Shown piece after piece: positions 22,567 to 40,232 of a DNA stretch of 64,000 nucleotides (the stretch's first letter is position 1; every line of letters begins with the position of its first letter). Under the pieces are notes generated by a model. The model saw only the letters and a program-made list of their open reading frames with translations. It had not been told where the DNA came from and searched no databases. The position numbers and the translations under genes were made by a program. Where the stretch lies: the NCBI GenBank assembly GCA_049280815.1, contig JBAPQW010000087.1:2522-66521 (forward strand). The letters are read 5' to 3'. This DNA is from Verrucomicrobiia bacterium (GTDB lineage Bacteria > Verrucomicrobiota > Verrucomicrobiia > Limisphaerales > UBA11358).

Positions 22567-22579
22567 CGTATGGTGATTT

Positions 22580-24387: not shown

Positions 24388-24410
24388 TAAAAAGACCGAA
24401 CGGTCTATTT
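24388..24410. terminator. Candidate bidirectional terminator hairpin between convergent genes
   Basis: aaaaAGACC-gaac-GGTCTattt: a short 5-bp stem flanked by an A-run and a T-run. It overlaps the ACP stop codon. The stem is weak. Confidence 0.3.
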
Positions 24411-24677
24411 GGGCAGGGATTGGTGTTTTTGAACTGCCGCGGCAATCGTGTTGACGTCCTGCAATATACCTTTGGCGGCCTCGGGATCGGAAATCTTCAG
24501 CCCATAATTTTTGTCCAGGGCCACCACCAGTTGCAGGGCGTCAACGGAATCCAACCCCAGTCCGCCCGGACCAAACAACGGCAGATTGTCCGCAATTTCT
24601 TCCGCGGAAGTTTGGAGCATGAGGTTTTCCACCAGCAAGTGTTTAATTTGCGTTTTAAGGGCCGGGGTATTGTTCAT
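24405..24677 (-). CDS. Acyl carrier protein
   Basis: 90 aa. Phosphopantetheine attachment motif GLGLDSVDALQLV. Last gene of the coupled operon. Confidence 0.9.
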   Translation of the reverse strand: MNNTPALKTQIKHLLVENLMLQTSAEEIADNLPLFGPGGLGLDSVDALQLVVALDKNYGLKISDPEAAKGILQDVNTIAAAVQKHQSLPK

Positions 24678-25405
24678 TAGAATATGCCACCGTCAATTTT
24701 GAGGGTTGAACCTGTGATGTAGCTGGCTTCGGCGCAAGCCAAAAATCGGACGGCGGCAGCGACTTCGTCAGGTCGGCCGAACCGTCGCATGGGAATCCGC
24801 TCCAGGGCTCTATTGCGTTCCGTCTCATCCATCGCCTGCGACCCGGTCTCCACATATCCCGGACATATGGCATTGACCGTGATGCCAATCCGGGCAACTT
24901 CCTTGGCCAGAGATTGGGACAGCGCCACCACCCCGGCTTTGGCGGCGGCATAGTTTGCCTGACCGGCAGGCGCCAGCAACGCGCTCAGCGAGGCGATATT
25001 GATGATGCGGCCGTTACGCTGGCCAATCATCGTGGGAAGAACCGCCTGACAACCGTGAAAGACCCCATCCAAATTAAGGGCCAGAATTCTTTGCCACGAG
25101 TCCAAAGCCATGGTGGCCAGCAGGGCATCCTCGTGACACCCGGCATTGTTCACGAGCACATCCAACCGCTGGTGGTGGACCAGAATCTCGGCCACGGCCG
25201 CCTTCCATGAGTCAGGCCGGGTGACATCCATGGCAATTGTGCGGCAGCGGTCCGGACTTTCCGCAACAAGTTTTTCGGCCTGATCAAGGCGCTCGTGGAT
25301 ACCCAACCAGATTTTATTTTCCGCGGATTCATGGAGAAATGACCGGGCAATGGCCTGCCCCAAACCGCCGTTGGCGCCCGTGATCAAGATAACGCGCGGA
25401 TTCAT
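24677..25405 (-). CDS. 3-oxoacyl-ACP reductase (SDR, FabG-like)
   Basis: TGANGGLGQAI (TGxxxGxG), VLVNNAG, and the Ser...YAAAK catalytic pattern. Its start overlaps the upstream stop by 4 nt. Confidence 0.9.
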   Translation of the reverse strand: MNPRVILITGANGGLGQAIARSFLHESAENKIWLGIHERLDQAEKLVAESPDRCRTIAMDVTRPDSWKAAVAEILVHHQRLDVLVNNAGCHEDALLATMALDSWQRILALNLDGVFHGCQAVLPTMIGQRNGRIINIASLSALLAPAGQANYAAAKAGVVALSQSLAKEVARIGITVNAICPGYVETGSQAMDETERNRALERIPMRRFGRPDEVAAAVRFLACAEASYITGSTLKIDGGIF

Positions 25406-26478
25406 CGCGCAAGCCTGCCCGCCGTTGTCGGCAATGACAAATCTGAAATGGCCCGGTCGCCATGGTTAAATCGAACCCCAATGGCCTGTTGGTTTGCCCC
25501 CACCAGGCTGACATTGGCGGCACTGAATCTTCGGCTGGCGATCCCATCGCACGCGGCCACGCATTGCCAGGCTGCCGCAGCCATCAAGCCTTCGCCCAAT
25601 ACCAGCTTAGGACTGAGGCGTGGCCCGCTCCAATCAGCCCAGGCATTGGATTCAGCCGCATCGGCACGCGGACTATCATTCCGACCATCACACAAGATTT
25701 CTGTCTGGTCTTGCGCCGGCATCTGTGCCCGCATTTTCTGCGCGGCCAGCTTTCGACTCGTCTGTGCGGTGTAAGCGTGTGCGTCGGTGATCAATTCGAG
25801 CCCGGCTCCCAACGACCATTCCGGATTCAGGCTCAAGCAGAGCGCGGCGGCGCCGCTGCTGAGGACGGTGCGGCGGTCAAAATGCCGGAGGGCGTCGGCA
25901 GACAACCAGTGAACTTCCTCCGCGCCGATCGCGAGGCAGGCATCCACCCGCCCCTCGTGCAACCAGTCAATTCCGAGGGCCAGTCCTTGCGCATAGGCGG
26001 ACGCGTCTCCGGTCAGGGTGCAGACCAGCGGGGTATTATCCAACAGGGCGGCCACATGGCAGGCCGGCGCGGCAAAAACGGTCTCGGGAAACAGCAGTGG
26101 ACTGGCGGTGGCGGCGTTCTTTAACGTCTCCTCGAAAAATCGGGAGGAAAATTGCACGCAGCCGGTTTGCAGACAGACAATAATTCCAATTCGGGGATGC
26201 GCTCCACCGCCGGGCCGGACCTTGCTTGCGGCCTCCAGCGCTGCCGCGGCCGCATGCTGTGTCAATGGACTGGTGCGCCGCATATGGGGATGGGTCAGAA
26301 AGGGTGGCCGGACTGACGGGTTGGGCACGGGTCGCAGGTTCAATGGTTTTTGCCAGCCCGGACGCATCAGCGGCTGGATCGGCAGAGCCGCTTTTTTTTC
26401 CAAGGCAGCGCGAAGAGCTTCCACACCCCAACCCGCCGGGCTGACGCTGCCCAGGCCGCAGACGAATACCCGACTCAT
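25402..26478 (-). CDS. Beta-ketoacyl-synthase-like protein lacking the active-site Cys (CLF-like partner)
   Basis: Thiolase-fold-like N-terminus (MSRVFVCGLGSVSPAGWG). The position of the KS 'ACxSG' motif reads TLTGDASAYA (Cys replaced). No HGTGT or GH His motifs. It overlaps the upstream KS by 4 nt. Confidence 0.8.
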   Translation of the reverse strand: MSRVFVCGLGSVSPAGWGVEALRAALEKKAALPIQPLMRPGWQKPLNLRPVPNPSVRPPFLTHPHMRRTSPLTQHAAAAALEAASKVRPGGGAHPRIGIIVCLQTGCVQFSSRFFEETLKNAATASPLLFPETVFAAPACHVAALLDNTPLVCTLTGDASAYAQGLALGIDWLHEGRVDACLAIGAEEVHWLSADALRHFDRRTVLSSGAAALCLSLNPEWSLGAGLELITDAHAYTAQTSRKLAAQKMRAQMPAQDQTEILCDGRNDSPRADAAESNAWADWSGPRLSPKLVLGEGLMAAAAWQCVAACDGIASRRFSAANVSLVGANQQAIGVRFNHGDRAISDLSLPTTAGRLAR

Positions 26479-27716
26479 GACCCCCTCCGCATGATCAGGG
26501 TGGCATTGACGCCACCAAACCCAAACGAATTTGAAAGCGCCACCTTGACGGATGCCTCTTCCGGCCGGGCGACAATGCGAAAAGCGCAGGCCGGGTCGGG
26601 GGTCTCAAAGGCCAGTTCCGGTGGCAGCCATTGCTCGCGCAAACACATGAGGCAAACCACGGCCTCCACCGAACCAGCCCCGCCCAGAAGATGTCCGATG
26701 CCAGCTTTCGTTGAACTGACCGGCAGAGTGCCTGCACGGCTGCCTGCCCAGCGGCTGATGGCTTTTGCCTCGGCTTGGTCATTCAACGGGGTTCCGGTGC
26801 CGTGGGCGTTGATGTAATCAACATCTTCAGCCGTGACCTGCGCGCCCGTGCAGGCCGATTGCATCGCCTGGTATGCCGCGTCTCCTTCCGGATGCGGTTG
26901 AGTAAGATGGTGGCGGTCCATGCTGGTGCCATAGCCAATGATTTCCCCCAAAATGTCGGCGCCCCGATTCCGTGCTGATTCAAAGGTTTCGAGGGTCAAC
27001 ACCGCCGCGCCTTCGCCCATGGCCAAGCCATCGCGATGCGCGTCAAACGGCCGGCAACTCGTGGGCGACAACGTTTGCAGCGAATCAAAGCCGGAAAACA
27101 CCATCTGGCTGAGGGCGTCATAACCGCCGGTCAAAACCCGGTCGGCTTGTCCGCGCCGGATCATTTCCCAGGCCTCACCGATGGCGCTGGTCCCGGAGGC
27201 ACAGGCGTTGGAGAGGATCGTGATCGGCCCGGCGAAACCCAGGGCGTCCAACAGCATCCGTGCCTGGAAGTGCGACTGATAATGCAAAACCCGCGTGGGC
27301 TGTCCTTTGTGGTGATGGGGCAAACTGACGGCCTGGCGAAAGTAATCCTCCCCAACCGTCATGCCGCCGGCCGTGGTGCCCAAAACAACCGGCAAATGAT
27401 TGGACGTTTCCCAACCGGACTGCTGCCAGGCTTCGTGGGCCGCCAGCAACAACATGATGCTGGCCCGGTCCAACCGTTTGTTTTGGCGCTCCGTCAATCG
27501 CGTTGCCGGCAGCATGGCGGGCAACTCCACCACCGCCGCGGTTTTGACCCGTTGCTGGCTGACATCGAAGTGGGTGACGGGACGGAAACCTGTCTTCCCC
27601 GCGCGAAACGCTGCGGCGTTCTGTTTCCATCCCTGCCCCAGCGACGTCACGATCCCGGCGCCGGTGACCACCACGCGCGGTTTGGTCGAAGGGAAGGAGT
27701 TTTTGGGAAAAAGCAT
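26475..27716 (-). CDS. Beta-ketoacyl-ACP synthase (FabF/KAS II-like)
   Basis: Catalytic triad motifs SNACASGTSAIGEA (Cys), INAHGTGTPLND (His) and SSTKAGIGHLLGGAG (His). Confidence 0.92.
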   Translation of the reverse strand: MLFPKNSFPSTKPRVVVTGAGIVTSLGQGWKQNAAAFRAGKTGFRPVTHFDVSQQRVKTAAVVELPAMLPATRLTERQNKRLDRASIMLLLAAHEAWQQSGWETSNHLPVVLGTTAGGMTVGEDYFRQAVSLPHHHKGQPTRVLHYQSHFQARMLLDALGFAGPITILSNACASGTSAIGEAWEMIRRGQADRVLTGGYDALSQMVFSGFDSLQTLSPTSCRPFDAHRDGLAMGEGAAVLTLETFESARNRGADILGEIIGYGTSMDRHHLTQPHPEGDAAYQAMQSACTGAQVTAEDVDYINAHGTGTPLNDQAEAKAISRWAGSRAGTLPVSSTKAGIGHLLGGAGSVEAVVCLMCLREQWLPPELAFETPDPACAFRIVARPEEASVKVALSNSFGFGGVNATLIMRRGS

Positions 27717-27731
27717 GTGGCGGCTTTTGAA

Positions 27732-29051
27732 TCATGCGGGCACGGTCTGCGCGAGCCGGTAAACGCTTTGCCGGAAACCGAAGTTCATCGGGTAAAACAA
27801 GTTCTTCCAGGCGGTTGTTCCCCACAGGCGTTTGAAAATGGAGGGAATCGAATACACCTCCTTGAACACGCGGTAATAACCTTTCAGCAACTGGTCGGCG
27901 GTCAGGCTCTTGGGTTTGAAGACCACGTGGTTGGCGTCGTACAGCGACCAGTCCTGGGTCAGAATCCGATCTTCCCGGGCCAGCCGTTGATGCAGCCGGG
28001 TGCCGGGATACGGCGTGAGGATGGAAAAATAGGTCACTTCAATTTTCGCCTTCAAAACAAATTCCAGCGTGCGGTCGAAAACCCCCTCGTCATCGTTGTC
28101 AAAACCAAACACGAATGAGCCGTCGATGCCGATGCCGTGGTCGTGAATTTTTTGCACGATATCGAAATACTGGTCCGGGTGATTCACGCGCTTGCCCATC
28201 GCGGCGATGGTTTCGGGCGAGAGCGATTCGAAGCCCATGAAGAGTCCCTTGCAGCCGCTTTGCTGGCAAAGCTTCAGGATTTCCGGATCGCTGGCAATGT
28301 TGACCGAGGCCTGGCCAAACCAGTTCAGCTTCAAATCGGCGATGCGGGGCAAAAACTCCCGGGCATAGGCGCGGTTGCTGATGATGTTGTCATCCGTAAA
28401 AAACACGCAGTTCTTCAACGAGAACGTTCCCCGATCGAAAGGGGTCAGTCCCCGCAGTTCCGCCAGCACCTCCTCCTGCGGACGGTTGCGATATTTCCCG
28501 CCAAAGGCGCTCGTCACGGCGCAAAATTCGCAGTCAATCGGGCAGCCCCGGGTCGTTTCGACAAAATGAACCGGCAGATATTTTTTATTTTCGTAAAGAT
28601 TCCAATCCGGCGGCGGCAGCCCGGCCAGCGATGGCAGACTGTCTTGATGGCGGTAGACGGGCTTGAGCTGGTGGAGTTCGAAATCGCGCAACAAAGCAGG
28701 CCACAGCGCCTCGGCTTCTCCCATCACCAGACTGTCGCAGTGCGGTTGAGCCTCATCCGGCAGGCAGGAAACGTGCATCCCGCCCAGCACCACCTTGATG
28801 CCGCGCTGGCGGAAATGATCAGCAATTTCATAAGCCCGCTGGACGGTGGTGGTCATGGCGGTGATGCCCACCAGATCAGCCTCCTGGTTCAAATCCAACG
28901 GTTCGCTTTTCTCATCCACAATCGTGACCTGCCAGTCGGACGGCGTCAGCGCCGCCACTTTGAGGAGGCCGAGACCGGGCATGCGGAAAAAGAATTTATC
29001 ACCCATCAGGCTTTTCCTGGAGAGCGGGGAGATGAGCAATAATTTTTTCAT
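27732..29051 (-). CDS. B12-binding-domain radical SAM enzyme (class B)
   Basis: N-terminal cobalamin-binding-like Rossmann segment (MKKLLLISPL...ADLVGITAMT). Radical SAM cluster motif TTRGCPIDCEFCAV (CxxxCxxC). About 440 aa. Confidence 0.88.
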   Translation of the reverse strand: MKKLLLISPLSRKSLMGDKFFFRMPGLGLLKVAALTPSDWQVTIVDEKSEPLDLNQEADLVGITAMTTTVQRAYEIADHFRQRGIKVVLGGMHVSCLPDEAQPHCDSLVMGEAEALWPALLRDFELHQLKPVYRHQDSLPSLAGLPPPDWNLYENKKYLPVHFVETTRGCPIDCEFCAVTSAFGGKYRNRPQEEVLAELRGLTPFDRGTFSLKNCVFFTDDNIISNRAYAREFLPRIADLKLNWFGQASVNIASDPEILKLCQQSGCKGLFMGFESLSPETIAAMGKRVNHPDQYFDIVQKIHDHGIGIDGSFVFGFDNDDEGVFDRTLEFVLKAKIEVTYFSILTPYPGTRLHQRLAREDRILTQDWSLYDANHVVFKPKSLTADQLLKGYYRVFKEVYSIPSIFKRLWGTTAWKNLFYPMNFGFRQSVYRLAQTVPA

Positions 29052-29055
29052 CGGT

Positions 29056-30459
29056 TCATTTTCCATTTACGCCATGCGGCCACAGGCGTTGAATGGTTGA
29101 AAAGTAGCTCCACAACGGCCCGACGGCACCTTTTTTACGCAACCGTTCGACCAGGCGGGTGTAGGCCGGCCCCGGATCACCGATAATCCAGCTGGGCGCG
29201 AGGCGGGCAAAGGCCTGGAGCCGGGCAAAGACCTCATCCGCCATCAGACCGGGCGCGAGATAATAAGCGGGGGCAAGCAAATCGGTCTCCTGGTCAATGC
29301 AGCCTTCGGCGACCGCCTGCTGAAACAGGCGCGTGCCCGGATAAATCCGCATCCCCACCACCGCAATGATGACGGCGTTCTTGATCCGCAACGATGCCTC
29401 AAATCCGCACCGCAAGGTTTCCCTGGTTTCACCCGGGCCGCCGCTGATGAGAAAATGGCAGAAATCGATGTTCTCCTGGTTGGCCAGTTCGCTCGCATGC
29501 AGGATGTCGTCGAAAGTCAGCCCTTTTTGGTAAGCCGCCAGAACCTCGTCACAGAAACTGTCCGAACCAAACTCAATGTGCGCCAGCCCGGCCCGCTTCA
29601 TCAGCTTCATCAATTCCGGCGTCAATCCTTGAGGTCGCAGAAAACAACCCCAGGCCAGCTTCACATTGCGGCGCAGAATGGCCTCGCAGATTTCCGCGAC
29701 ATGACGCGGGGAAGAATTGAAGACCGAATCCACGATGAACACATAGCGGGCCCCCAGCCTTTGCACCTGCTCGAATTCATCGCCCACGGCGTCAGCGGAG
29801 CGACTCCGGTGATGCCGGCCTTCAATGATCGGATACGTGCAATAACAACATTGGCTGGCACAACCGCGCTGGGTCTGGATGTTCAGCATGCCGCTGGTGC
29901 GCAGGTAATAGTCCGAGACGGTGGCCGGACGGTCGCCCTCGGCCAGAATTTGTCCGTCCGGACTGCCGGCGGGCGGATTGATGAGGATATTCCCGTTTTC
30001 GCGGTAAACCAGGCCGGGAATACCGGAGAAATCGCAGCCGTTGTTCAAGGCGGCCAGCAGGGAAACAAAACCGGCTTCGCCTTCGCCGCAGATGCCATAT
30101 TCTGCGCCGGTCAATTGCAGCAACTGCCGGGGAAAAATGCTGAAGCCGCTGCCGCCCAGCACCACCGGACATTTGACTGTCTGCCGGATCGTTTCACCCA
30201 GCGCGGAGAGGTGGTCAAAAAAAGTTTCCCGTTTGCGGATGATCACATCGTCAATGTTACGGACGGAAATACCAACGACATCCGGTGGATAACCGTCCAA
30301 AACATCCTCGATTCGTTCGGCACCAGCCAGGCTGTCGACCCAATGGGTGTCGTGGCCAGCCCGGCGCAACGCAGAATTCAGGTAGGCCAGCCCCAGCGGA
30401 AAGACCGGGTCGGGCAGGGTGCAGCGGTTGTCGCTGATCAGTAGAACTTTGTTACCCAT
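29056..30459 (-). CDS. B12-binding-domain radical SAM enzyme (class B), second paralogue-type
   Basis: MGNKVLLISDN...PDVVGISVRN (B12-like domain). QRGCASQCCYCTYP supplies CxxxCxxC. About 467 aa. The longest possible ORF of the downstream rSAM (start 29066) would overlap this gene's stop at 29056; with the chosen start at 29051 the two genes are separated by about 4 nt. Confidence 0.88.
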   Translation of the reverse strand: MGNKVLLISDNRCTLPDPVFPLGLAYLNSALRRAGHDTHWVDSLAGAERIEDVLDGYPPDVVGISVRNIDDVIIRKRETFFDHLSALGETIRQTVKCPVVLGGSGFSIFPRQLLQLTGAEYGICGEGEAGFVSLLAALNNGCDFSGIPGLVYRENGNILINPPAGSPDGQILAEGDRPATVSDYYLRTSGMLNIQTQRGCASQCCYCTYPIIEGRHHRSRSADAVGDEFEQVQRLGARYVFIVDSVFNSSPRHVAEICEAILRRNVKLAWGCFLRPQGLTPELMKLMKRAGLAHIEFGSDSFCDEVLAAYQKGLTFDDILHASELANQENIDFCHFLISGGPGETRETLRCGFEASLRIKNAVIIAVVGMRIYPGTRLFQQAVAEGCIDQETDLLAPAYYLAPGLMADEVFARLQAFARLAPSWIIGDPGPAYTRLVERLRKKGAVGPLWSYFSTIQRLWPHGVNGK

Positions 30460-30590
30460 GCAATGGCGGGTTTGTGATTCCGGCAACTGGACCAGTGACC
30501 GTGGTCACTCCAAGGCTGCGGCAGAACCCCTCAAGACGTTGGCATGAGGACACAGGTTGTTCAGCGATGACAGCTTTAAGCACGTGCGCC

Positions 30591-31697
30591 TTACGATTGA
30601 ACTCTGCGGGCGATCTCCTTTCCTGCGGCGTCCGCTCCCTGGCCCTGATAAAAATCGGCCAGCCCGGTTTTCGAAGGCGCGAGTCCTTCCGCGGAAAGCG
30701 CGTTGAGCACATGTTCTTCCGTCATGATGAACCGGCCGCGTTTGTAAATGACGTAATCACCGCGCAAATCACCGGGGGTCATGTTGATCGTCACGAGATT
30801 CGCCCCCGCGCGCAAGCCGCGACGATAGCCATCCGGCGCGGCAAGGTTGAACGCGCTGACGGCGGGGATCACCCAGTCCGGCCGCATCAACCGCATGGCG
30901 CTCACACAATTGAAGGTCCAGTCGGCCTGGGCCGTCGAGCCCCCGGCGAACGGCGTGTTTTCACCGGGAATGAACGGGCTGACGCTGCAACCGTGCAGCG
31001 GGAGCGTGCGGGCGAGTTCCAGGTTTTTCCACAAATCCCGCGGCTGTTGTCCGGGCAATCCAACGATGAATCCGGAGCTGACAAACCATCCATTTTCCGC
31101 GAGCAGGCGGATGTGCCGCAGCCGTTCGGCCAGGGTGCCGGGCGCTTCCAGTTGTTCATAGTGCGCGGCATTGCCGGTTTCGAACTTCATGATAAAAATA
31201 CCCGCGCCCGCGGCCTGCAGCTCGGAATAAACTTCCGGCGACAAGGTCCCCAGGCAAACGCTGATCCCGAGCGGTGTTTCGCGCCGCAGGGTTTCGATGA
31301 GCGGCAGCACGACCTCGCGCACCGCCACCGGGTCTTCGCCCGACTGGATGTTGACGTCCGTCACGCTGTCCGGGCGATGCTCGACAAGCAGTTCGGCGAT
31401 TTTTTCATGCTGCGCGCGGTAGCGGGCGAGGCTGCGATTATCGCGGCGCATGCCACAGTAGCCGCAATTTTCGCGGCAGAAATTCGAAACTTCGACCACG
31501 GCGCGCACGAAAACTTTCTTGCCAAATCGAGTTCGCGTGGCGGCCGCGGCGCGTTCGTGCAAGCCCGCTTGGGCCGCGCCGTTCAAGGCGAGTTCCGACT
31601 CGGTGGGAAAATGGCCGTTACTTGACACCAGGTGATGATAGTACGCCCGCCATCCTGGCGCAACCAGCGGGGTGAAGATCCCATATCCATCAGCCAA
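30591..31697 (-). CDS. Radical SAM enzyme of the BioB/ThiH/HydE-like subgroup
   Basis: VSNFCRENCGYCGM (CxxxCxxC) follows an N-terminal extension. TIM-barrel-length body of about 368 aa. Confidence 0.85.
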   Translation of the reverse strand: MADGYGIFTPLVAPGWRAYYHHLVSSNGHFPTESELALNGAAQAGLHERAAAATRTRFGKKVFVRAVVEVSNFCRENCGYCGMRRDNRSLARYRAQHEKIAELLVEHRPDSVTDVNIQSGEDPVAVREVVLPLIETLRRETPLGISVCLGTLSPEVYSELQAAGAGIFIMKFETGNAAHYEQLEAPGTLAERLRHIRLLAENGWFVSSGFIVGLPGQQPRDLWKNLELARTLPLHGCSVSPFIPGENTPFAGGSTAQADWTFNCVSAMRLMRPDWVIPAVSAFNLAAPDGYRRGLRAGANLVTINMTPGDLRGDYVIYKRGRFIMTEEHVLNALSAEGLAPSKTGLADFYQGQGADAAGKEIARRVQS

Positions 31698-32566: not shown

Positions 32567-32658
32567 GATTTCAATTAGAAGAAACCCGGACTTTATTCAA
32601 GCTCCGGTCGCAAAACTGCTTCGAATCCAGGCCGTCGCGCATGCGCACCAGGCCGCCT

Positions 32659-34311
32659 TCAGAGAAAATCCGCTTCCTCCGGCACGGTGAAAACATAGCC
32701 TTCCGCCGCCAGCCGGGTAAGCACGGTTTCGGCCAGAATCACATTAATCGGTCGTCCGTGTCGATCGCGCCGGCCTTCATGCAACAATATGATCGCGCCG
32801 GGTTGGACGGAGCGGTGGATCCGATCCGCCATGGCTTCAGGATCCTGAAACAGTCCATCAAATCCGCGCGCCGACCAGCCGATGAGCTTCAGGTTCCGGT
32901 CGCACAGTAGAATGTGCAGAAACAGATTGGCCATGCCCGCCGGCGCCCGAAACCATCGGGGTGGTTCGCCGGTGGCTTCGCGCAAGGCCTGGCTGCATTG
33001 ATCAATTTCCCGCGTCAACCAAGTTTCGAGAAAACTCCAGAAAAACAATACCGGATGGGTCTGCGTGTGATTGGCCAGCGAGTGACCGTCGCGCAAAATC
33101 GCCCGGGCCAGTTCCGGATATTCTTGAACCCGCCGGCCAATCACAAAAAAGGTCGCCCGCGCGTTGTATTTTTTTAGCAGCTTGAGCAGCTGCGGCGTGT
33201 CCTCGGGATGCGGGCCGTCATCAATGGTCAGCCAGACGGCCTTTTTCTGCGTGCGAAAGCGGGTGACGACCCGGCCAAACCAGCCACAATTGGCGCGAAT
33301 CGCCGGAAAAATAATCAAAGTTTTTGTGGCCAGATCCAGGCTTAAAAAAAACAGCTTGTGATTCCAGTTAAGGGCCAGCAGCACGGGTGTGGTCAAACAT
33401 ACGGCGAAGACCAGAATTAAGGCAAACCGGCGGCGCGTGAAAAACCAGAGGCCCACCCTGGTCAGCACGGTTTCCGGTGCAATGGCAATGCTTTTTGCCT
33501 GCGACAGGCCGATGGGCTGCGGAGTCCTCCCCCCGTGTTTTGCCCGCTGCCGCAATCTCCAGATCCGCCGCATTTGCGGCAACAGTTCCAGCACCAAAAG
33601 CGTGTGCCGCTGAATGAGCAGCAGATTATCCCGCCAATAATGGAAGTGGGAAATTCCGCCGTCCGCCGGATTGAAATACCTGACCGGTGCGGAAAGATTG
33701 ATCGGTGGCACCCCGGCCCAAAATAGCCGCACGGCCAGTTCCGTGTCGAAATCAAACCGCCGCGCGCCGGGCGTACTTTGCAGGATGCGCACCGATTCCT
33801 GGAGGGGATAAACCCGGAAACCGAAAAGCGAATCTTCAATCCCGCCCCAGAACGTCTCCAGATTGGCCCACCAGTTCCCCACGCGCCGGCCGTGACGGCG
33901 CAATGCCGGCGCATCCATGGCAAATTGGGGCACACCCAAAATCATGGCGGCGGGATTTTTCTGCGACGCCTGCATGAAACGGGAAATATCGGCCGCCGAA
34001 TGCTGGCCATCCGCGTCCAGCACCAGCGCATGGGTGAAGCCCGCCTGACCGGCAGCCAGCATCGCGTGCAGCACGGCGGCGCCCTTGCCCGAGTTGCAAT
34101 CGAGGGATAAAACCCGCAGGCCACTTCCCGGCCGGTTCATTTCCGCCAACGCCGCCGCGCTGCCATCCGTGCTGCCATCCAGCACGACCCACACGGGCTG
34201 CCAGCAAACCAGGGCTTCCTTCACCGTTTCGGCGAGCCGGCTTCCCGTGTTGTAACTCGGGATGATGACCAGATGCGACTGGCTTGGCGCCGGCTGGTTC
34301 GGGTCGCTCAT
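32659..34311 (-). CDS. Fusion protein: family-2 glycosyltransferase + TM segment + NodB-type polysaccharide deacetylase
   Basis: N-terminal GT2 strings (LVIIPSYNTGSRL, VLDGSTDGS, VLDADGQH). Central hydrophobic helices. C-terminal NodB motifs (WLTIDDGPHPEDT, GHSLANHTQTH, LLHEG). Confidence 0.85.
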   Translation of the reverse strand: MSDPNQPAPSQSHLVIIPSYNTGSRLAETVKEALVCWQPVWVVLDGSTDGSAAALAEMNRPGSGLRVLSLDCNSGKGAAVLHAMLAAGQAGFTHALVLDADGQHSAADISRFMQASQKNPAAMILGVPQFAMDAPALRRHGRRVGNWWANLETFWGGIEDSLFGFRVYPLQESVRILQSTPGARRFDFDTELAVRLFWAGVPPINLSAPVRYFNPADGGISHFHYWRDNLLLIQRHTLLVLELLPQMRRIWRLRQRAKHGGRTPQPIGLSQAKSIAIAPETVLTRVGLWFFTRRRFALILVFAVCLTTPVLLALNWNHKLFFLSLDLATKTLIIFPAIRANCGWFGRVVTRFRTQKKAVWLTIDDGPHPEDTPQLLKLLKKYNARATFFVIGRRVQEYPELARAILRDGHSLANHTQTHPVLFFWSFLETWLTREIDQCSQALREATGEPPRWFRAPAGMANLFLHILLCDRNLKLIGWSARGFDGLFQDPEAMADRIHRSVQPGAIILLHEGRRDRHGRPINVILAETVLTRLAAEGYVFTVPEEADFL

Positions 34312-35093
34312 GAATTTGTTTCCCGGGTTGGTGCCAGGGTTTCCCTGAAATAATTTTCCACCGCGAGGCCAAATGGTTTTGCTTCCTGTGCCGGCTCCGG
34401 CTGAAACCGCCTGCCCAGGCGCAGGGAATAGCGCACCGGAAAGGCCGGCCTTTTGAAAAACGGCCGGCCTTTGCCCAGGCAGTTGCCCTCCGCACGGATA
34501 ATGACGGTCTGCACCGGCGACCGGGTCAAAACCGCGGCCAGGGCGAACCCCATCTTGAAGGGCAGCAATTCCCCCCCCACGGTCCGCGTGCCCTCGGGAA
34601 ACACCAGCAGATTGGACCCCTCTTTCAGCCGCTCCTCACATTTTTTAACGAGGCCCAAACCGGATTGATTATGGATGTACCCGGCCAGCCGCGCCGTGCC
34701 CGACAACACAATGTTGCGCGCCAGACTTCCCTTCATCAGGCAGACGGCTCGCGGCACCAGGGAAACCAGCAACACCGCGTCCAGCAGACCGGGATGATTC
34801 GCCACCACGATCAATCCGCTGGCAGGGCGCAGTGCGGACAACCCGCCAGCGTCCAGTTCGAGCAGCCCAAACGCGCGCAAATACCCTACAAAAAAGACGA
34901 ACAACGTATGAATCAGCTTTTGGCCAAAAAAACGCGCGCCGACCCCTCGAAATAAAATTGCCGGAACCGCACAAGCCACGCTGACCACCGATCCGACGAC
35001 CGCAAAAATAAAAAACGCCCCAAAAAAGGCCGCAGTTTGCAAAACGTCTTGGAACCAGTTTTTGGTTGGTGTCGAAATCAGTTCGAAAGGCAT
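34308..35093 (-). CDS. Lysophospholipid/glycerol-3-phosphate-type acyltransferase (PlsC/LPLAT family)
   Basis: N-terminal TM helix. HX4D motif VANHPGLLDAV. VFPEGTRT motif. First gene of the operon. 4-nt overlap with the next gene. Confidence 0.85.
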   Translation of the reverse strand: MPFELISTPTKNWFQDVLQTAAFFGAFFIFAVVGSVVSVACAVPAILFRGVGARFFGQKLIHTLFVFFVGYLRAFGLLELDAGGLSALRPASGLIVVANHPGLLDAVLLVSLVPRAVCLMKGSLARNIVLSGTARLAGYIHNQSGLGLVKKCEERLKEGSNLLVFPEGTRTVGGELLPFKMGFALAAVLTRSPVQTVIIRAEGNCLGKGRPFFKRPAFPVRYSLRLGRRFQPEPAQEAKPFGLAVENYFRETLAPTRETNS

Positions 35094-35400: not shown

Positions 35401-35793
35401 ATGGAAAATCATGCTGTGATTGAAATGCTGCCAATATCAGATCCTGCACGAACCCTCCCCGCGCGCCGGAAGTTCTGGTTCACCAAAATCGCCACCTTTT
35501 TAACCGCCTCCGCGCTGTTGGGCTGGTCCTATGGCTGGTCGTCAGCCCGGGCATTTCCCAAAGGTAAAACCTTTGGATTTGGTTACGGCATGTTGCACGG
35601 CGCGTTGATGCCGCTCGCGCTGCCAAGCCTGCTCCTCGGCCGGGACGTGGAAATTTTTGCAGCGGACAATTCGGGGCGCCTCTACAAAATCGGCTACATT
35701 TGCGGCATCAACGCCTGCGGCCTGGCCTTCTTCGGGCCTTTGTTCTGGCGTCCGAAACGGGGCGCGGCGGATCATAAAAACCAATTTCGATAA
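35401..35793 (+). CDS. Small integral membrane protein of unknown function
   Basis: Start taken at ATG 35401 (MENHAVIEML...). Three or four hydrophobic segments. Divergent from the lipid operon. The 5' extension in the ORF track is Ala/Pro-rich shadow sequence. Confidence 0.45.
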   Translation: MENHAVIEMLPISDPARTLPARRKFWFTKIATFLTASALLGWSYGWSSARAFPKGKTFGFGYGMLHGALMPLALPSLLLGRDVEIFAADNSGRLYKIGYICGINACGLAFFGPLFWRPKRGAADHKNQFR

Positions 35794-36518
35794 ATCTCGA
35801 TGAGGTTCAGGCTGCCGCCCACCCAGTAAAGATTCCCCGGCAGAAAGAACGTTTGCGACGCCCGGTCAAACGTCAATTGCGAAGGTCGGATCGGGTCGTT
35901 CGGGTCGTAGGCTTGAAATTCAAAACCGCGCCCGGTTTCCACCCCGTCGAAAACCACCATGCTGTGATTGATGGACAGGGAAGGGAAATTCACCAGATGG
36001 ATGATGGGCGAAATATTTTGTTTGAGGGTGACGAACAATTGCGCGGCTGTGCGCGCCTGGTGGGCGCGCGTAATCGGAAACACCATCCGCCAATGGCTCC
36101 GCAAAAAGTACGAACGCCATGCGCCGCCGCACTCGACCTTGAACAGTTGTTCGCGCGCCCGGCTGAATTCGTGCAAACTGGCATATCCGGGGATGACAAT
36201 CTGCCTCCCGCCCGGGCACGGCGTCCGCGGGTCGCGCGAAAGGACTTCGCGAATCAAATGCCGGCAGGTTTCGTCATCAGCGGTGGGTTGGCCGGCGTCG
36301 AACTGCGCATGACCATGGAATTGCCGCACCGCGCGGGTCAGGACAAAACAGCGATGCGTGTAGTCCGGCTTCGGCTTGCGCCGGCGGATGATGGTTTTGC
36401 CGGTCGCTGGATCGAATTGATAGGTCCACACCAATTCATTGGCAAAGGCGAAGGTGTCGCGGGCAAATTCAAAGCGCCGCCCGACAGCCTCGCCTGGATC
36501 TATTTTGGTCGATATCAT
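35772..36518 (-). CDS. Hypothetical protein (possible Cys/His hydrolase- or transferase-like fold)
   Basis: Start taken at ATG 36518 (MISTKIDPGE...). 248 aa with a globular composition. Conserved-looking Cys (YTHRCFVLTRA) and His (SINHSMVVFD) in the order seen in papain-like folds. The fold assignment is speculative. Confidence 0.55.
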   Translation of the reverse strand: MISTKIDPGEAVGRRFEFARDTFAFANELVWTYQFDPATGKTIIRRRKPKPDYTHRCFVLTRAVRQFHGHAQFDAGQPTADDETCRHLIREVLSRDPRTPCPGGRQIVIPGYASLHEFSRAREQLFKVECGGAWRSYFLRSHWRMVFPITRAHQARTAAQLFVTLKQNISPIIHLVNFPSLSINHSMVVFDGVETGRGFEFQAYDPNDPIRPSQLTFDRASQTFFLPGNLYWVGGSLNLIEIYRNWFL

Positions 36519-36563: not shown

Positions 36564-37829
36564 ATGCTTTACGACCGGTGGCGGAAAATTGCGGGAGAAC
36601 AGCGCAACGAACTGGCGCTGCGCGATACCGCTTCGGGGCGTCGCTGGACGTTCGCCGGACTGTTCGCTGCGGGTGAAAGCTGGAATGGAGCGCCGGTCTC
36701 CGACCCGGCCCGCACCTCCGACGTTATCTGCCCCCAGGGCCATTCGCCGGAATTCATCCTCGATTTGCTCGCCGCGTGGCGCGAAAATAAAATGGTTTGT
36801 CCGCTTGAACCGGGACAATCGCCGCCGGAAATCTCCCGGCCGTCAAAAAATTGTGTTCACTTCAAATTCACCTCGGCCACCGCCGGTGCGCCGCGCCTCG
36901 TCGCCCTCACGGCGGAACAGCTCATGGCCGATGCGGATAATATCGCCGTCACGATGGGCTTGCGCGCGGATTGGCCGAACTTGGGCGTCGTTTCCATGGC
37001 GCATTCGTATGGATTTTCCAATCTGGTGCTGCCGTTGCTGCTGCATGGCCTTCCCCTGATACTCGCGCCTGCGCCCTTGCCCGAAATCATCCGGCGCGCC
37101 GCTGAAAACGAACCGGCCATCACCCTCGCCGCGGTGCCGGCGCTGTGGCGCGCGTGGCATGAGGCGAAGGCGATTCCCGCCAGCGTGCGACTCGCCATTT
37201 CCGCCGGCGCGCCCCTGTCGGTGGATCTGGAACAGGTAATTTTCAAGTCCCGCGCGCTCAAAATCCACAATTTTTACGGCGCGTCCGAATGCGGCGGCAT
37301 CGCCTTTGACGCCGGTAAAACGCCGCGCACGGACGCCGAGCTGGTCGGAACGCCGATGCAAAATGTCAATTTGTCGCTCAACGAGCAGGGCTGTCTGGTG
37401 GTGCGCAGCCGCGCGGTGGCCGAAACGTATTGGCCGGGTGAATTGAATTCGCTCGGCGGCGGCGTTTTCCAGTCGGGCGACCTCGCGGAGTTGAAACAGG
37501 GCGCTGTTTTCTTGCAGGGACGGTTGGGGGATCAGATCAACATCGCCGGACGCAAACTATCGCCGGAAACCGTCGAGCGCGCGTTGCTCGCGCATCCGCA
37601 GGTCCGCGAGTGCCTGGTTTTAGGCGTGCCGAGCCATGACGAGGAACGGACGGAAACCATCGTCGCGGTCATCGTGGGGAGGGCGGCGGAGAAGGAATTG
37701 AAACACTTTCTGCTGCAAACGTTGCCCGCCTGGCAGGTCCCGCGCGAATGGCGTTTTGTCGAATCACTTTCGGCCAATGCCCGCGGGAAGCTTTCCCGCG
37801 CGGAATGGCGGCGGATTTTAATGACTTAA
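36564..37829 (+). CDS. AMP-dependent synthetase/ligase (adenylate-forming enzyme, short form)
   Basis: FKFTSATAGAPRLV (variant AMP-binding core). GDLAEL...QINIAGRKLSPETVE. C-terminal NARGKLSRAEW (catalytic Lys). 421 aa. Confidence 0.88.
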   Translation: MLYDRWRKIAGEQRNELALRDTASGRRWTFAGLFAAGESWNGAPVSDPARTSDVICPQGHSPEFILDLLAAWRENKMVCPLEPGQSPPEISRPSKNCVHFKFTSATAGAPRLVALTAEQLMADADNIAVTMGLRADWPNLGVVSMAHSYGFSNLVLPLLLHGLPLILAPAPLPEIIRRAAENEPAITLAAVPALWRAWHEAKAIPASVRLAISAGAPLSVDLEQVIFKSRALKIHNFYGASECGGIAFDAGKTPRTDAELVGTPMQNVNLSLNEQGCLVVRSRAVAETYWPGELNSLGGGVFQSGDLAELKQGAVFLQGRLGDQINIAGRKLSPETVERALLAHPQVRECLVLGVPSHDEERTETIVAVIVGRAAEKELKHFLLQTLPAWQVPREWRFVESLSANARGKLSRAEWRRILMT

Positions 37830-37883
37830 CACCGCCTCGGCTTTTTGTTTCCGGATCGCGCCGCTTGCTGCACTCTTGGATGC

Positions 37884-38600
37884 ATGGATTCGCCGCACAC
37901 GCGCGCACCCGGGGCTGGCTGGCTAAATCAGGCCTGGGTCCGTGGGCTCAAGTGGTGGCCGGCCAAGTTGATTGGCGCGACCCTCGGCATGGCGTTGTTT
38001 TTTGCCGCCTATTTCTGGGTGCTGCATCACCCGCTGTTCCCCGTCACCACCATGCCGCTCACCGCGGTTGACCGGCTGATCGGTTTCCGACCGGAAGCCC
38101 TGCCGCTCTATTTGTCGTTGTGGATTTATGTGACCCTCGTGCCCGCACTGCTGGTTGATCGCCGCGAGCTCGTGTCCTATGCCCTGGCCGCCGTCGGGAT
38201 CAGTGTCATCGGTCTGGGGATATTTCTCCTGTGGCCGACGACCGTGTTTTGGCCTGACGCTGACTGGTCGCAGCATCCGGCATTTGCGTTTCTCCAGTCG
38301 GTGGATGCCTCGGGCAACGCCTGTCCTTCCCTGCATGTGGCGTTTGCCATGTTCACCTCCATCTGGCTCAACCGCCTGCTAAGGCAGATCGGCGCCGGGC
38401 GCGGCCTGCGGGCGTTCAACTGGCTGTGGTGTCTGGGCATTCTGTATTCCACGGTCGCCATCCGCCAGCATGTCGCGCTCGATGTCCTCGCCGGAGCCGG
38501 ACTGGGGGCGGCTGTCGGCGTGATGCATCTGCGCTGGCTGCGCTTTTCAGCCGTATCCATGCAGCAGAAAAACCTTTTTACCACGGATGAACACCGATGA
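37884..38600 (+). CDS. PAP2-superfamily membrane protein (phosphatase / phosphotransferase-like)
   Basis: Multi-TM protein. Motifs CPSLHVAFAM and IRQHVALDVLAG (PAP2 C2/C3-like). An alternative start is at 37845. The last codons and the stop (FTTDEHR*) lie inside an ATCCGTG-type repeat. Confidence 0.75.
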   Translation: MDSPHTRAPGAGWLNQAWVRGLKWWPAKLIGATLGMALFFAAYFWVLHHPLFPVTTMPLTAVDRLIGFRPEALPLYLSLWIYVTLVPALLVDRRELVSYALAAVGISVIGLGIFLLWPTTVFWPDADWSQHPAFAFLQSVDASGNACPSLHVAFAMFTSIWLNRLLRQIGAGRGLRAFNWLWCLGILYSTVAIRQHVALDVLAGAGLGAAVGVMHLRWLRFSAVSMQQKNLFTTDEHR

Positions 38601-38807: not shown

Positions 38808-39575
38808 TTGATGGACGAACAACTGCGAACCGATTTGCCGGTGGCACCCTTGTCGCCGCATCGTCCGCTCTCCGAGTTCTACCGGGCATCGGCGGAACGA
38901 CAGCATTTTGTCAACGATCTGTTCGACGAGGCGGCGCCGGACTACGACTGGGTGAGCAGCCTGATGTCGTTTTGGAGCGACCGGTTCTATCGCCGGGCTG
39001 CTTTGCGGCGAGCCGGGTTACAGAGCGGCATGCAGGTGCTGGACGTGGCGAGTGGCACGGGATTGATGATCAAGGCCGCGCTGGAACTCGGAGTGGACCC
39101 CGCGCAGGTGACCGGCGTTGATCCCAGCCGGGGCATGCTGGCAAAGAATCGGGAACGCAACCCGGTCACGTTGCTGGAAGGCACGGGAGAAGCCCTCCCT
39201 TGTGCGGATGCTTCGTTCGATTTCGTGTGCATGGGTTACGCCCTGCGCCACGTTGAGGATTTGCGCAAGCTCTTCGGCGAATTCCATCGCGTGTTGCGGC
39301 CGGAGGGGCGGGTGTTGATCCTGGAGATCACCCGGCCAACCAGTGCGGTGGCGTTAAACTTGATGCGTTTCTACATGCAAAAGCTGGTGCCACGCCTGGG
39401 CTGGCTGCGCCGGCGGAACCGGTCCACGGCCAAGTTGATGCAATATTACTGGGCCACGATTGAAGAGTGTGTTCCACCCCCGGTCATCCTCTCGGCGCTG
39501 GAAGCCAGCGGCTTCAGGCAGGTCAAGCGCACCACCACCGGCGCGGTCTTGAGCGAATATGTAGCCAGGCGTTGA
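38808..39575 (+). CDS. UbiE/MenG-family SAM-dependent methyltransferase
   Basis: VLDVASGTGLMIKAA (motif I). LRPEGRVLILE. N-terminal YDWVSSLMSFW region typical of UbiE/COQ5-type enzymes. Confidence 0.85.
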   Translation: MMDEQLRTDLPVAPLSPHRPLSEFYRASAERQHFVNDLFDEAAPDYDWVSSLMSFWSDRFYRRAALRRAGLQSGMQVLDVASGTGLMIKAALELGVDPAQVTGVDPSRGMLAKNRERNPVTLLEGTGEALPCADASFDFVCMGYALRHVEDLRKLFGEFHRVLRPEGRVLILEITRPTSAVALNLMRFYMQKLVPRLGWLRRRNRSTAKLMQYYWATIEECVPPPVILSALEASGFRQVKRTTTGAVLSEYVARR

Positions 39576-39689: not shown

Positions 39690-39720
39690 GGAGCAGAAGT
39701 TCTCGTCCTCGCTTATCGAT

Positions 39721-39789
39721 GTAGCAGCGGACATGCGTCCGCTCATTCTCATCCTGCGAAAGTTAGAGCCGACTCATGTCGGCTGCTAC
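39721..39789. repeat. Double-hairpin palindromic element, subtype 1 (intergenic, tandem to the subtype-2 copy)
   Basis: GTAGCAGCGGACATGCGTCCGCTC, 21 nt, GAGCCGACTCATGTCGGCTGCTAC. Confidence 0.85.
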
Positions 39790-39806
39790 GGTGAAAGGTG
39801 ACGGCG

Positions 39807-40232
39807 TCAGCTTCCGCTGAGCGTCAATTCCGCCGTCAGAACAGTTTCACCGGCGACGCGGGCCGTTGCCTGCGCCTGAACCAGATTGCCGAGCCGTCCG
39901 GTGATGCGCGCTTCAAGCTGGATGATTTCGCCGGGTCTGGCGGTGCCAAGAATTTTCACATTTCGCAGCGCGGTAAGCTTCAGTCCGGCCAGCGGCGGGA
40001 TTTTCGGATCGCTTTGCGCCACCACGCCCGCCAGCTGCGCCGCCGCCTCGACGAGCAGCACGCCCGGAAAAAACGGCTGGCCGGGAAAATGGCCGCGCAA
40101 AAAAGGCTCGTCGCCGCGAACCTTGTATTCGCCTTCACCGTTTTGCCCCGGATCCAATTTCATCAGCCGGTCAATGAACCGGAACTCGGCACCGTGGGGC
40201 AGAAGACCCAAGGCTGTATCAAGATGTTTCAT
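39807..40232 (-). CDS. 3-hydroxyacyl-ACP dehydratase (FabZ/FabA hot-dog family)
   Basis: LLPHGAEFRFIDRL...RGHFPGQPFFPGVLLVEAAAQLAG (catalytic His and FabZ signature). 141 aa. Confidence 0.88.
   Translation of the reverse strand: MKHLDTALGLLPHGAEFRFIDRLMKLDPGQNGEGEYKVRGDEPFLRGHFPGQPFFPGVLLVEAAAQLAGVVAQSDPKIPPLAGLKLTALRNVKILGTARPGEIIQLEARITGRLGNLVQAQATARVAGETVLTAELTLSGS

Follow-up and report, generated by a model that had tools for sequence, protein, structure and literature searches.

A conserved verrucomicrobial gene cluster joining a private fatty acid synthase-like line to radical SAM enzymes

Gene content of the locus

We analysed a stretch of 64,000 nucleotides from an uncultured Verrucomicrobiia bacterium (a metagenome-assembled genome; GenBank assembly GCA_049280815.1, contig JBAPQW010000087.1, positions 2,522 to 66,521; hereafter the window), which carries a block of lipid-related genes between 24.4 and 40.2 kb. 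The block contains a conserved cluster of soil and peat Verrucomicrobia in which a private fatty acid synthase (FAS)-like line is joined to radical S-adenosylmethionine (SAM) enzymes, and which belongs to a known, uncharacterised class. Gene models were taken from a map of open reading frames (ORFs) and from the gene calls for the same DNA in public assemblies, which are in agreement, and domains were assigned by Pfam and NCBIfam profile scans of the window ORFs with the curated NCBIfam cutoffs applied. A first-pass annotation of this DNA had described a chain of ten minus-strand genes from 24405 to 35093, several of them with overlapping stop and start codons. The ORFs and domains lie where it placed them, the public gene calls agree, and the overlaps occur at four junctions: the acyl carrier protein (ACP) and ketoreductase (KR) genes share 1 nucleotide, and the pairs KR/ketosynthase (KS) partner, KS partner/KS and GT2-NodB/LPLAT share 4 nucleotides each. 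The genes for two of the radical SAM proteins, rSAM A and rSAM B, overlap only as longest ORFs; as called, they are separated by 49 nucleotides.

The assembly line includes a dedicated ACP of 90 residues (24405..24677, minus strand; Pfam PP-binding, 26.5 bits), with its phosphopantetheine serine, that of the DS(L/V) motif, within LGLDSVD; NCBIfam ACP models match it only below threshold. Next to it is a FabG-like 3-oxoacyl-ACP reductase, the KR (24677..25405, minus strand; adh_short_C2, 191 bits), which scores 250.6 bits against TIGR01830, below the cutoff of 297.75, and is a FabG paralogue rather than the housekeeping FabG. The FabF-like KS (26475..27716, minus strand; N- and C-terminal Pfam ketoacyl-synt domains) scores 374.5 bits against TIGR03150, below the cutoff of 493.75. 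When the KS and partner sequences of 14 loci are aligned, its catalytic tetrad Cys172-His305-Lys337-His342 is seen to be intact in the window and in every relative aligned. Among structures in the PDB it matches Thermus thermophilus FabF (283.9 bits) better than 9s5h_B (258.3 bits) and Iga11 (194.9 bits), and the KSs of highly reducing or aromatic type II polyketide synthases (PKSs) reach ~195 bits; by these scores it is closest to true FabF enzymes and then to amxFabF2 of anammox bacteria.

Between the KR and KS genes lies that of a catalytically dead KS partner of 358 residues (25402..26478, minus strand), which resembles a chain-length factor (CLF). It has no Pfam match and weak N-terminal similarity to KSs, and its best PDB match is 9s5h_C (E 2.9e-6). 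The window protein lacks the Gln that marks the CLFs of aromatic type II PKSs at the position of the active-site Cys; this position is Ala in the window and variable (A, P, D, S or Q) in the relatives. In every aligned partner the first catalytic His is replaced by Asp and the second by Glu, and the Lys is kept.

The remaining assembly-line genes stand upstream of the chain. A FabZ-like 3-hydroxyacyl-ACP dehydratase paralogue (39807..40232, minus strand; FabA domain, 64 bits) has the catalytic His in GHFPG and the Glu in LVEAAAQ, and scores 85.9 bits against NF000582 (FabZ), below the cutoff of 113. A short ANL-family AMP-ligase of 421 residues (36564..37829, plus strand; AMP-binding, 81 bits, and AMP-binding_C, 44.5 bits), for which every NCBIfam match lies far below cutoff, is presumed to load a starter acid. 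On their scores we rejected housekeeping FabF, FabG and FabZ identities for the KS, KR and dehydratase, as well as a cispentacin-type Amc system (AmcF 227.7 bits with a cutoff of 325, AmcB 32.6 with 80, AmcE 35.8 with 140). Thus the type II FAS/PKS-like ACP system proposed earlier is present, with a KS and its dead partner, KR and dehydratase. Also as proposed, no thioesterase, exporter or enoyl reductase was found in the Pfam and NCBIfam scans of the ORFs of the 24.4-40.2 kb region, and neither was a phytoene-desaturase-like gene.

Three radical SAM genes lie within the chain, as first described. rSAM A (29056..30459, minus strand; Pfam PF02310 and PF04055) is a B12-binding radical SAM protein and the sole cluster protein to exceed a curated equivalog cutoff, scoring 386.5 bits against TIGR04072 ('rSAM_ladder_B12', lipid biosynthesis B12-binding/radical SAM protein; cutoff 360). 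Its CxxxCxxC motif lies in RGCASQCCYC, with C200, C204 and C207 invariant in 12 homologues. At E<=1e-20 its homologues number more than 2600, and relatives were confirmed in at least 586 species-representative genomes. The nearest named homologues are proteins of verrucomicrobial metagenome-assembled genomes (MAGs) that bear the NCBI name 'lipid biosynthesis B12-binding/radical SAM protein'; matches of 80-88% identity point to a verrucomicrobium as the source of the window. The nearest solved structure is TsrM (6wte, E 2.8e-35) and the second-best NCBIfam model is BzaD (215.7 bits); TsrM and BzaD use methylcobalamin to methylate sp2 carbons. Arg69 of TsrM, which lies under the cobalt of cobalamin, has as its counterpart an invariant Arg of the rSAM A motif SxRNxDD, and in one pairwise alignment Glu273 of TsrM aligns with Val. 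Glu273 ligates the unique iron of the TsrM cluster and blocks SAM from it, making TsrM non-radical, and the role of Arg69 was described in the same work (PMC8992657). The replacement of Glu273 by Val makes canonical radical chemistry plausible, and from this one pairwise alignment we infer that rSAM A is methylcobalamin-dependent and could still generate a 5'-deoxyadenosyl radical. Its most likely function, as predicted from these alignments, is that of a methylcobalamin-dependent radical C-methylase.

rSAM B (27732..29006, minus strand; Pfam B12-binding, Radical_SAM and DUF4070) is a B12-binding radical SAM protein of the DUF4070 type with its CxxxCxxC motif in RGCPIDCEFC. It scores 75.3 bits against TIGR04072 and is not a member of that family. 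Its best NCBIfam models are HpnJ (97 bits, cutoff 577.6) and BchE (94.5 bits, cutoff 481.35), a similarity at the level of the superfamily, and we rejected both identities on these scores. HpnJ and BchE are ring-contracting or ring-forming enzymes, and rSAM B probably performs C-C bond or ring chemistry. The third protein (30591..31697, minus strand; Radical_SAM, 63 bits) belongs to the HydE/PylB/BioB clade and has its CxxxCxxC motif in NFCRENCGYC. It scores 192.6 bits against HydE, below the cutoff of 254.6, and 118 bits against PylB; HydE itself was discarded on this score, and no hydrogenase maturation genes were found among the window ORFs scanned.

The lipid-anchoring and glycosyl genes of the first-pass annotation are likewise present in the Pfam and NCBIfam scans. 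A class I SAM methyltransferase of 229 residues (31877..32566, minus strand; Methyltransf_11/25) scores 106.5 bits against PRK06202, below the cutoff of 243, and a PDB search gave only generic UbiG-type matches, with no link to the anammox SAM-methyltransferase structure. The adjacent membrane-anchored fusion of a family 2 glycosyltransferase (GT2) and a NodB-type deacetylase (32659..34311, minus strand; Glycos_transf_2, 66 bits, and Polysacc_deac_1, 110 bits) has two hydrophobic segments between its domains, as read from the sequence. It scores 46.5 bits against PpgS and 108 bits against NodB, and since the NodB cutoff is 240 a true NodB identity of the deacetylase was rejected. An LPLAT/AGPAT-type acyltransferase (34308..35093, minus strand; Pfam Acyltransferase, 64.5 bits) has the motifs HPGLLD (HX4D) and FPEGTR. 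On the plus strand are a PAP2/PAP2_3 membrane phosphatase or phosphotransferase (37845..38600; PAP2, 40 bits, and PAP2_3, 30 bits) and a UbiE/MenG-like methyltransferase (38808..39575; Ubie_methyltran, 97.5 bits), which scores 147 bits against NF001244, below the cutoff of 216.

What had been listed as an unknown Cys/His protein is a DUF8321+DUF8322 protein (35772..36518, minus strand), from which the AMP-ligase gene diverges. The conserved Cys and His residues stood up to examination and the length did not, since the public gene call and the Pfam names give 248 residues rather than the 348 of the longest ORF. It has ~1800 homologues, with C57, H70, C130, H142, H153, H174, H185, D205 and N207 invariant. 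An AF2 model built with 25 homologues had a pLDDT of 66 and a pTM of 0.52 and found no match to the PDB in Foldseek at E<=0.001. With a mediocre model and no fold match, our guess of a papain-like Cys-His enzyme is unsupported.

A 'small membrane protein' claimed at 35098-35412 is probably not a gene, because the ORF has no family match and no tblastn match in the closest relative. Two further ORFs are probably not genes either: the minus-strand ORF 40280-41140 is antisense to YicC, which occupies the plus strand there and makes the ORF spurious, and ORF 23601-24185 overlaps tRNA-His. An Rfam scan of the whole window returned this tRNA only, with neither a cobalamin nor a SAM riboswitch, and promoter and terminator scans of 23.5-40.5 kb did not clearly exceed shuffled expectation and do not delimit the transcription units.

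Conservation of the cluster in related genomes

The co-conservation of the genes was examined by tblastn of every window protein against the best 80 loci related by rSAM A, from relatives in at least 586 species genomes. These loci are mostly from Verrucomicrobiota of peat, soil and freshwater, with a few from Nitrospirota, Acidobacteriota, Chloroflexota, Fibrobacterota and Opitutales; the closest relative fetched (L001) has an rSAM A 85% identical to that of the window. The KS partner was found in 34 of the 80 loci and the ACP, at the same position, in 25; rSAM B stands next to rSAM A in 36. The HydE-like gene occurs in 24, as do the AMP-ligase and the DUF8321/8322 gene in synteny, the KR in 20, and the dehydratase in synteny in 18, in most of which it directly adjoins the ligase.

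We refer to 18 verrucomicrobial loci as full clusters, since both of their flanks are available and they contain seven or more of the nine core genes. All of them share one order and orientation, namely FabZ (+), ligase (-), DUF8321/8322 (+), then the HydE-like gene where present, rSAM A, rSAM B where present, KS, partner, KR and ACP. Because this arrangement is kept in 18 loci in which rSAM A is 54-85% identical, it is not due to chance. rSAM B is missing from six of the 18 and the HydE-like gene from another, overlapping six, so that three radical SAM genes are the fullest version of the cluster and not the rule.

The 16-kb block that had been proposed as one unit is therefore conserved in its core and not in its remainder, so that only the core passes the co-conservation check that the first-pass annotation had set. 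The LPLAT, the full GT2-NodB fusion and PAP2 occur together with the core only in L001, apart from a weak LPLAT match in L072, and the fusion is lineage-specific; the 229-residue methyltransferase was located only in L001 and L014. The UbiE-like methyltransferase is absent from the cluster position in L001 and in all other related loci, and its membership of the cluster is doubtful. In ~22 loci a separate GT2 gene lies on the opposite strand, usually between the DUF8321/8322 gene and the radical SAM genes, and its product shares 28-37% identity with the GT2 half of the fusion.

The FAS-like neighbour genes that form the context of TIGR04072 were found in the window and in about half of the related loci. 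They are missing from 12 loci with full flanks in which an rSAM A orthologue stands with no other cluster gene within 10 kb, its match lying at ~10001-11400 in each (L007, L009, L011, L031, L035, L038, L039, L044, L045, L049, L060 and L073). These orthologues are 54-64% identical to rSAM A. In the two of these loci that were examined, it is surrounded by housekeeping genes: L007 has UvrD, an HDOD protein and EF-P, and L031 a hemerythrin/PAS protein, formate-tetrahydrofolate ligase and formate dehydrogenase. The partner genes may lie elsewhere in these genomes, or the substrate may be independent of the ACP system.

Other loci depart from the common arrangement. A different architecture around the same radical SAM pair appears in nine loci of Fibrobacterota/Chitinispirillaceae (L058, L064, L065, L068-L071, L074, L079), where an rSAM A homologue (43-51%) adjoins a distant second B12-binding radical SAM protein (23-29% to rSAM B); KS, partner and ACP are absent, and in some a small GT2 lies just upstream. 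In two Verrucomicrobiia loci (L051, L063) the cluster is rearranged, with rSAM A followed by KS (43-44%), partner and ACP, and with FabZ, ligase, HydE-like gene and DUF8321/8322 gene placed elsewhere within 20 kb. In one verrucomicrobial cluster (L023) a third B12-binding radical SAM gene (15906-17120) comes directly downstream of the KR gene, and its product has 34% identity to rSAM B. Four loci labelled 'uncultured Bifidobacteriaceae' (L008, L016, L017, L028) carry a verrucomicrobial-type cluster at 59-63% identity, a label that probably reflects mis-binning or mislabelled taxonomy.

The 3' end of the cluster is directly adjoined by a low-GC island (20500-24000; 0.50-0.52, with ~0.60 elsewhere) that holds an IS1595-family transposase (21447-22415, plus strand) and a 312-residue ORF without a family match (22580-23518, minus strand), and that ends beside tRNA-His (23590-23664, plus strand); it looks like a small mobile insertion at the tRNA. 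On the other side, 5-8 kb from the cluster, are hopanoid side-chain genes (45686-48388). HpnD, a presqualene diphosphate synthase (294.7 bits, cutoff 278.6), and HpnK, a YdjC-type deacetylase (283.8 bits, cutoff 232.6), pass their cutoffs, and an HpnG-like phosphorylase does not (115.6 bits, cutoff 187); HpnI, HpnJ and HpnH were not found among the window ORFs scanned. Two pairs of histidine kinase and sigma-54-dependent response regulator genes lie at 6210-9460 and 42703-45602, the second between the lipid cluster and the hopanoid genes. Further away are a RimO-type methylthiotransferase (49214-50953; TIGR01125, 471 bits) of 579 residues for a 432-position model, whose surplus of ~130-150 residues appears to separate the UPF0004 domain (residues 13-112) from the radical SAM domain (from 240), and three consecutive SPFH/Band-7 genes (57197-61091; 364, 306 and 628 residues) by a P-type ATPase (55182-57191) and ABC transporter genes. 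ORFs 3805-5922 (705 residues), 50995-52662 (555 residues) and 52542-54014 (490 residues) have no Pfam or NCBIfam match.

Predicted product and alternative explanations

Cluster I of anammox bacteria (kuste3603-3608 in Kuenenia) encodes amxACP, amxFabZ, a phytoene-dehydrogenase-like protein (PDH), amxFabF2, the inactive amxFabFmut and a B12-binding radical SAM protein, and is the leading, unproven candidate for ladderane biosynthesis (PMC10139942). The FabF2/FabFmut pair forms a functional KS/CLF-like heterodimer (bioRxiv 10.64898/2026.05.19.726425). Starting from the aligned part of 9s5h_C, we retrieved Scalindua-type proteins and two Cluster I contigs (L082, L083) and compared them with the window by reciprocal tblastn; from these matches 9s5h appears to be the amxFabF heterodimer. 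In both contigs (ENA ERZ1286166) the Cluster I genes appear as many short called fragments, probably owing to frameshifts in the long reads, and a second FabA/ApeI-like dehydratase lies ~5 kb downstream of Cluster I in L083 (18922-19395).

The link to the anammox candidate loci that the first-pass annotation had raised is real at this level of comparison. The Cluster I radical SAM protein and rSAM B are reciprocal best matches (40% over 142 residues and 34% over 255 residues), with only 20% identity between the former and rSAM A. amxFabF2 and the window KS are also reciprocal best matches, at 35-39% identity. The dehydratases share 44% over 57 residues, the window protein scoring better against canonical FabZ structures than against the amxFabZ entries, and the ACPs have no detectable match, the anammox ACP query being fragmentary. 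The dead partner is weakly similar to amxFabFmut (E 2.9e-6), and its retained Lys and the Glu at the second His position form the pattern of amxFabFmut, Kuste3606 and Kuste2805 (Rattray Table 2). Tblastn with the Cluster I PDH (kuste3607) gave no match in the window and a single one among the 80 related loci, a weak match in a Fibrobacterota locus; of the window ORFs scanned, none matched a phytoene-desaturase-like Pfam family.

Clusters of FAS-II and radical SAM genes have been described in Kuenenia, Desulfotalea, Geobacter and Pelobacter (Rattray et al. 2009). antiSMASH 'ladderane' biosynthetic gene clusters (BGCs) are reported to be well represented in Verrucomicrobia (PMC7298704) and to be present and expressed in situ in MAGs of Verrucomicrobiota, Fibrobacterota and Desulfobacterota (PMC9902471); the phyla named for these MAGs also appear among our rSAM A-related loci, and the locus presumably belongs to this antiSMASH class. 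Taken together, these comparisons lead us to consider it probable, with modest confidence, that the locus is a member of the 'ladderane-type' FAS-II and radical SAM class and that its product is a radical-SAM-modified acyl lipid; that this product is a ladderane is unlikely.

We hold the individual steps of a mechanism with much less confidence. The short ANL ligase would activate a carboxylic-acid starter and load it onto the dedicated ACP. The FabF-like KS and its dead partner, by analogy with the anammox homologues, would form a KS/CLF-type heterodimer for malonyl extension, and the KR and FabZ-like dehydratase would process each unit. Since no enoyl reductase is encoded, the chain would be unsaturated unless the housekeeping FabI acts on it. 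One to three radical SAM enzymes would then modify the carbon skeleton by methylation and possibly C-C bond formation, with rSAM A as a candidate for methylcobalamin-dependent radical C-methylation and rSAM B for C-C bond or ring formation, and the DUF8321/8322 protein might release or transfer the chain. In this lineage only, and by analogy throughout, GT2-NodB might make and N-deacetylate a membrane-bound amino sugar, LPLAT might acylate the acceptor, and the methyltransferase and PAP2 might tailor the result. The end product could be an unusual envelope lipid, an acyl (amino)glycolipid with an amino-sugar or lyso-lipid acceptor.

Several observations weigh against this interpretation. One third of the full clusters lack rSAM B and one third lack the HydE-like protein, and therefore neither is essential to the core chemistry. 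The acceptor module of LPLAT, GT2-NodB and PAP2 is not conserved, and since rSAM A stands alone among housekeeping genes in 12 loci its substrate need not be a product of the ACP system. The window partner, at 358 residues, is shorter and far more degenerate than amxFabFmut, which itself matches the window KS better than the partner. The DUF8321/8322 protein may act as proposed to judge from its conserved Cys and His residues, and its model is mediocre and has no fold match. Furthermore, expression of the anammox homologues in E. coli gave no new product (PMC4790861), and the non-anammox members of the class are known from their genes alone.

The first-pass annotation had likened the locus to aryl-polyene (APE) or xanthomonadin-type clusters, and one alternative is a pigment cluster of this type in which the radical SAM enzymes merely methylate the polyene or its aryl head. 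An AMP-ligase, ACP, KS/CLF pair, KR and dehydratase without an enoyl reductase, together with LPLAT, GT2 and a methyltransferase, would fit such a cluster, and its best sub-threshold NCBIfam models are PRK09184, PRK06202, PRK09185 and PRK08308, which we believe to derive from APE-type loci. However, all of these scores fall far below cutoff (ACP, PRK09184, 48.7 with a cutoff of 70; methyltransferase, PRK06202, 106.5 with 243; ligase, PRK08308, 82 with 513; KS, PRK09185, 303.7 with 407), so that the resemblance is one of superfamilies, and the defining parts are missing. There is a single ACP and a single KS pair, and neither an APE thioesterase nor a LolA-like/MMPL export pair was found among the ORFs of 24.4-40.2 kb. 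The dehydratase matches the FabA/FabZ type, with the FabA Pfam family and no ApeI/ApeP Pfam match at E<=0.001, the KS is closest to true FabF, and LPLAT and the methyltransferase lie outside the conserved core. We regard a pigment cluster as unlikely.

Slightly less likely, in our estimate, is the proposal that Rattray et al. made for the syntenic Desulfotalea and Kuenenia clusters, namely that polyunsaturated fatty acids or hydrocarbons are made anaerobically. D. psychrophila, which has similar clusters, contains unusual polyunsaturated hydrocarbons (PMC2649909), and a KS, KR and dehydratase without an enoyl reductase would suit the same end; yet the phytoene-dehydrogenase-like enzymes proposed as the desaturases are absent from the window, and two B12-binding radical SAM proteins would be left without a part to play.

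The radical SAM enzymes could instead act on a sugar or polyprenyl-linked head group, as the Hpn enzymes do in hopanoid tailoring. There, a GT2 (HpnI) adds GlcNAc, a deacetylase (HpnK) frees the amine and a B12-type radical SAM enzyme (HpnJ) contracts the ring. HpnJ is the best named match of rSAM B, a GT2 gene often neighbours rSAM A, including in Fibrobacterota loci without a KS, and the window has both the GT2-NodB fusion and, 5-7 kb away, HpnD and HpnK. Against this, the HpnJ score is 97 with a cutoff of 577, the rSAM B homologue of anammox Cluster I has no glycosyltransferase partner, and in 18 loci the radical SAM genes are in tight linkage with those for KS, partner and ACP. We think it improbable that the head group is the site of the radical chemistry.

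A genuine ladderane pathway, making concatenated cyclobutane rings outside the anammox bacteria, has in its favour homologues of four to five of the six Cluster I genes (ACP, FabZ-like dehydratase, FabF2, dead FabF partner and the B12-binding radical SAM protein at 34-40%) and the 'rSAM_ladder_B12' name of TIGR04072. It is opposed by the lack of PDH, which neither the window nor 79 of the 80 related loci encode, and by identities of only 30-40%. Moreover, the complete Cluster I is reported to occur exclusively in ladderane producers (PMC10139942), Desulfotalea has similar clusters and no ladderanes (PMC2649909), and the connection of Cluster I to ladderanes is itself unproven (PMC10139942). 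We give such a pathway very little chance. Least credible of all is that unrelated lipid genes came together here by chance or that the cluster is decaying, for although the accessory genes are not co-conserved and the IS1595 element and low-GC island adjoin the 3' end, the core order is kept in 18 genomes and the genes have intact reading frames, catalytic motifs and start/stop overlaps.

Within the preferred reading of a radical-SAM-modified acyl lipid, we offer as a long shot that rSAM B and its anammox Cluster I homologue might catalyse one and the same C-C bond- or ring-forming reaction, with an unsaturated acyl chain on the ACP as substrate. If it did, Verrucomicrobia would make undescribed cyclised or radical-crosslinked fatty-acyl glycolipids, and a widespread PDH-free cluster would offer a non-anammox, potentially expressible model for ladderane-forming chemistry. 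Ladderane biosynthesis has been unsolved for more than 20 years, in part because anammox bacteria resist genetic manipulation and yield poorly expressed enzymes (PMC10139942, PMC4790861). The radical SAM remodelling of fatty-acyl, as distinct from isoprenoid, chains is largely unknown, and the core defined here provides a minimal gene set for heterologous reconstitution. It also carries a caution, in that an antiSMASH 'ladderane' call does not equal ladderane production.

The earlier impression of novelty was too strong: the cluster class is already known from the TIGR04072 model, from Rattray et al. (2009) and from the 'ladderane' BGCs of Verrucomicrobia (PMC7298704, PMC9902471), and a possible connection with ladderanes had also been raised before. 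What our analysis adds is the dissection of core from accessory genes, the finding that the Cluster I-type radical SAM protein and the TIGR04072 protein are two different enzymes, often side by side, the Lys/Glu signature common to the dead KS partners, and the observation that the verrucomicrobial clusters lack PDH. Searching the literature for 'TIGR04072' gave no result, and a search for characterised systems of a KS/CLF with a cobalamin radical SAM enzyme gave the anammox papers only. As the class was already known, the locus is a good lead rather than a discovery.

Comparison with known systems

In agreement with the first-pass annotation, no characterised pathway matches the cluster, and its relatives resemble it in part. 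Among the better-studied proteins closest to rSAM A, TsrM (a Trp C2-methyltransferase) and BzaD act in thiopeptide or cobamide biosynthesis, whereas rSAM A has a lipid-related context. The Nod-factor system, by analogy only, shares with the window a special ACP and KS together with a GT2, a NodB-type deacetylase, an acyltransferase and a methyltransferase. There, NodF and NodE provide the special acyl chain, NodC is the GT2, NodB deacetylates, NodA N-acylates and NodS methylates, and ArnC/ArnD and NodC/NodB/NodA have in common that an amino sugar is deacetylated and then acylated. In contrast to the Nod-factor system, no NodA homologue was found in the window locus, and the window GT2 resembles polyprenyl-phosphate (amino-)sugar synthases, as in its 46.5-bit match to PpgS.

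The APE and highly reducing type II PKS systems, the latter exemplified by Iga11/12 of ishigamide biosynthesis, share with the window a ligase-loaded ACP, a KS with an inactive partner, a KR and dehydratase without an enoyl reductase, and lipid-anchoring LPLAT, glycosyltransferase and methyltransferase genes. APE clusters differ in having a second ACP, extra KS genes, a thioesterase and a LolA/MMPL exporter, and the window KS is less similar to Iga11 than to FabF.

In Kuenenia, kuste2802-2805 encode an ACP synthase, a B12-binding radical SAM protein, FabF and a non-canonical FabB (PMC4790861). Compared by annotation only, kuste2803-2805 share with the window the triad of B12-binding radical SAM protein, FabF and non-canonical FabF/B. 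We believe TIGR04072 to be of the kuste2803 type. The inventory of kuste3335-3352, again by annotation, also agrees well with the window and includes a glycosyltransferase, a polysaccharide-deacetylase-like protein, SAM methyltransferases, two radical SAM proteins, FabG, FabZ, ACPs and a CoA-ligase-like protein. Unlike the window, kuste2802-2805, kuste3335-3352 and the Desulfotalea, Geobacter and Pelobacter clusters contain phytoene-desaturase-like genes.

Like the window, Cluster I combines a dedicated ACP, a FabZ-like dehydratase, a FabF-like KS, a dead KS partner and a B12/DUF4070-type radical SAM protein. It has the PDH that the window does not, and the window in turn has the TIGR04072 protein rSAM A, the HydE-like radical SAM protein, the KR, the ANL ligase, the DUF8321/8322 protein and the glycolipid module. 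The hosts of Cluster I are anammox bacteria, whereas the host of the window is a verrucomicrobium with no known ladderanes.

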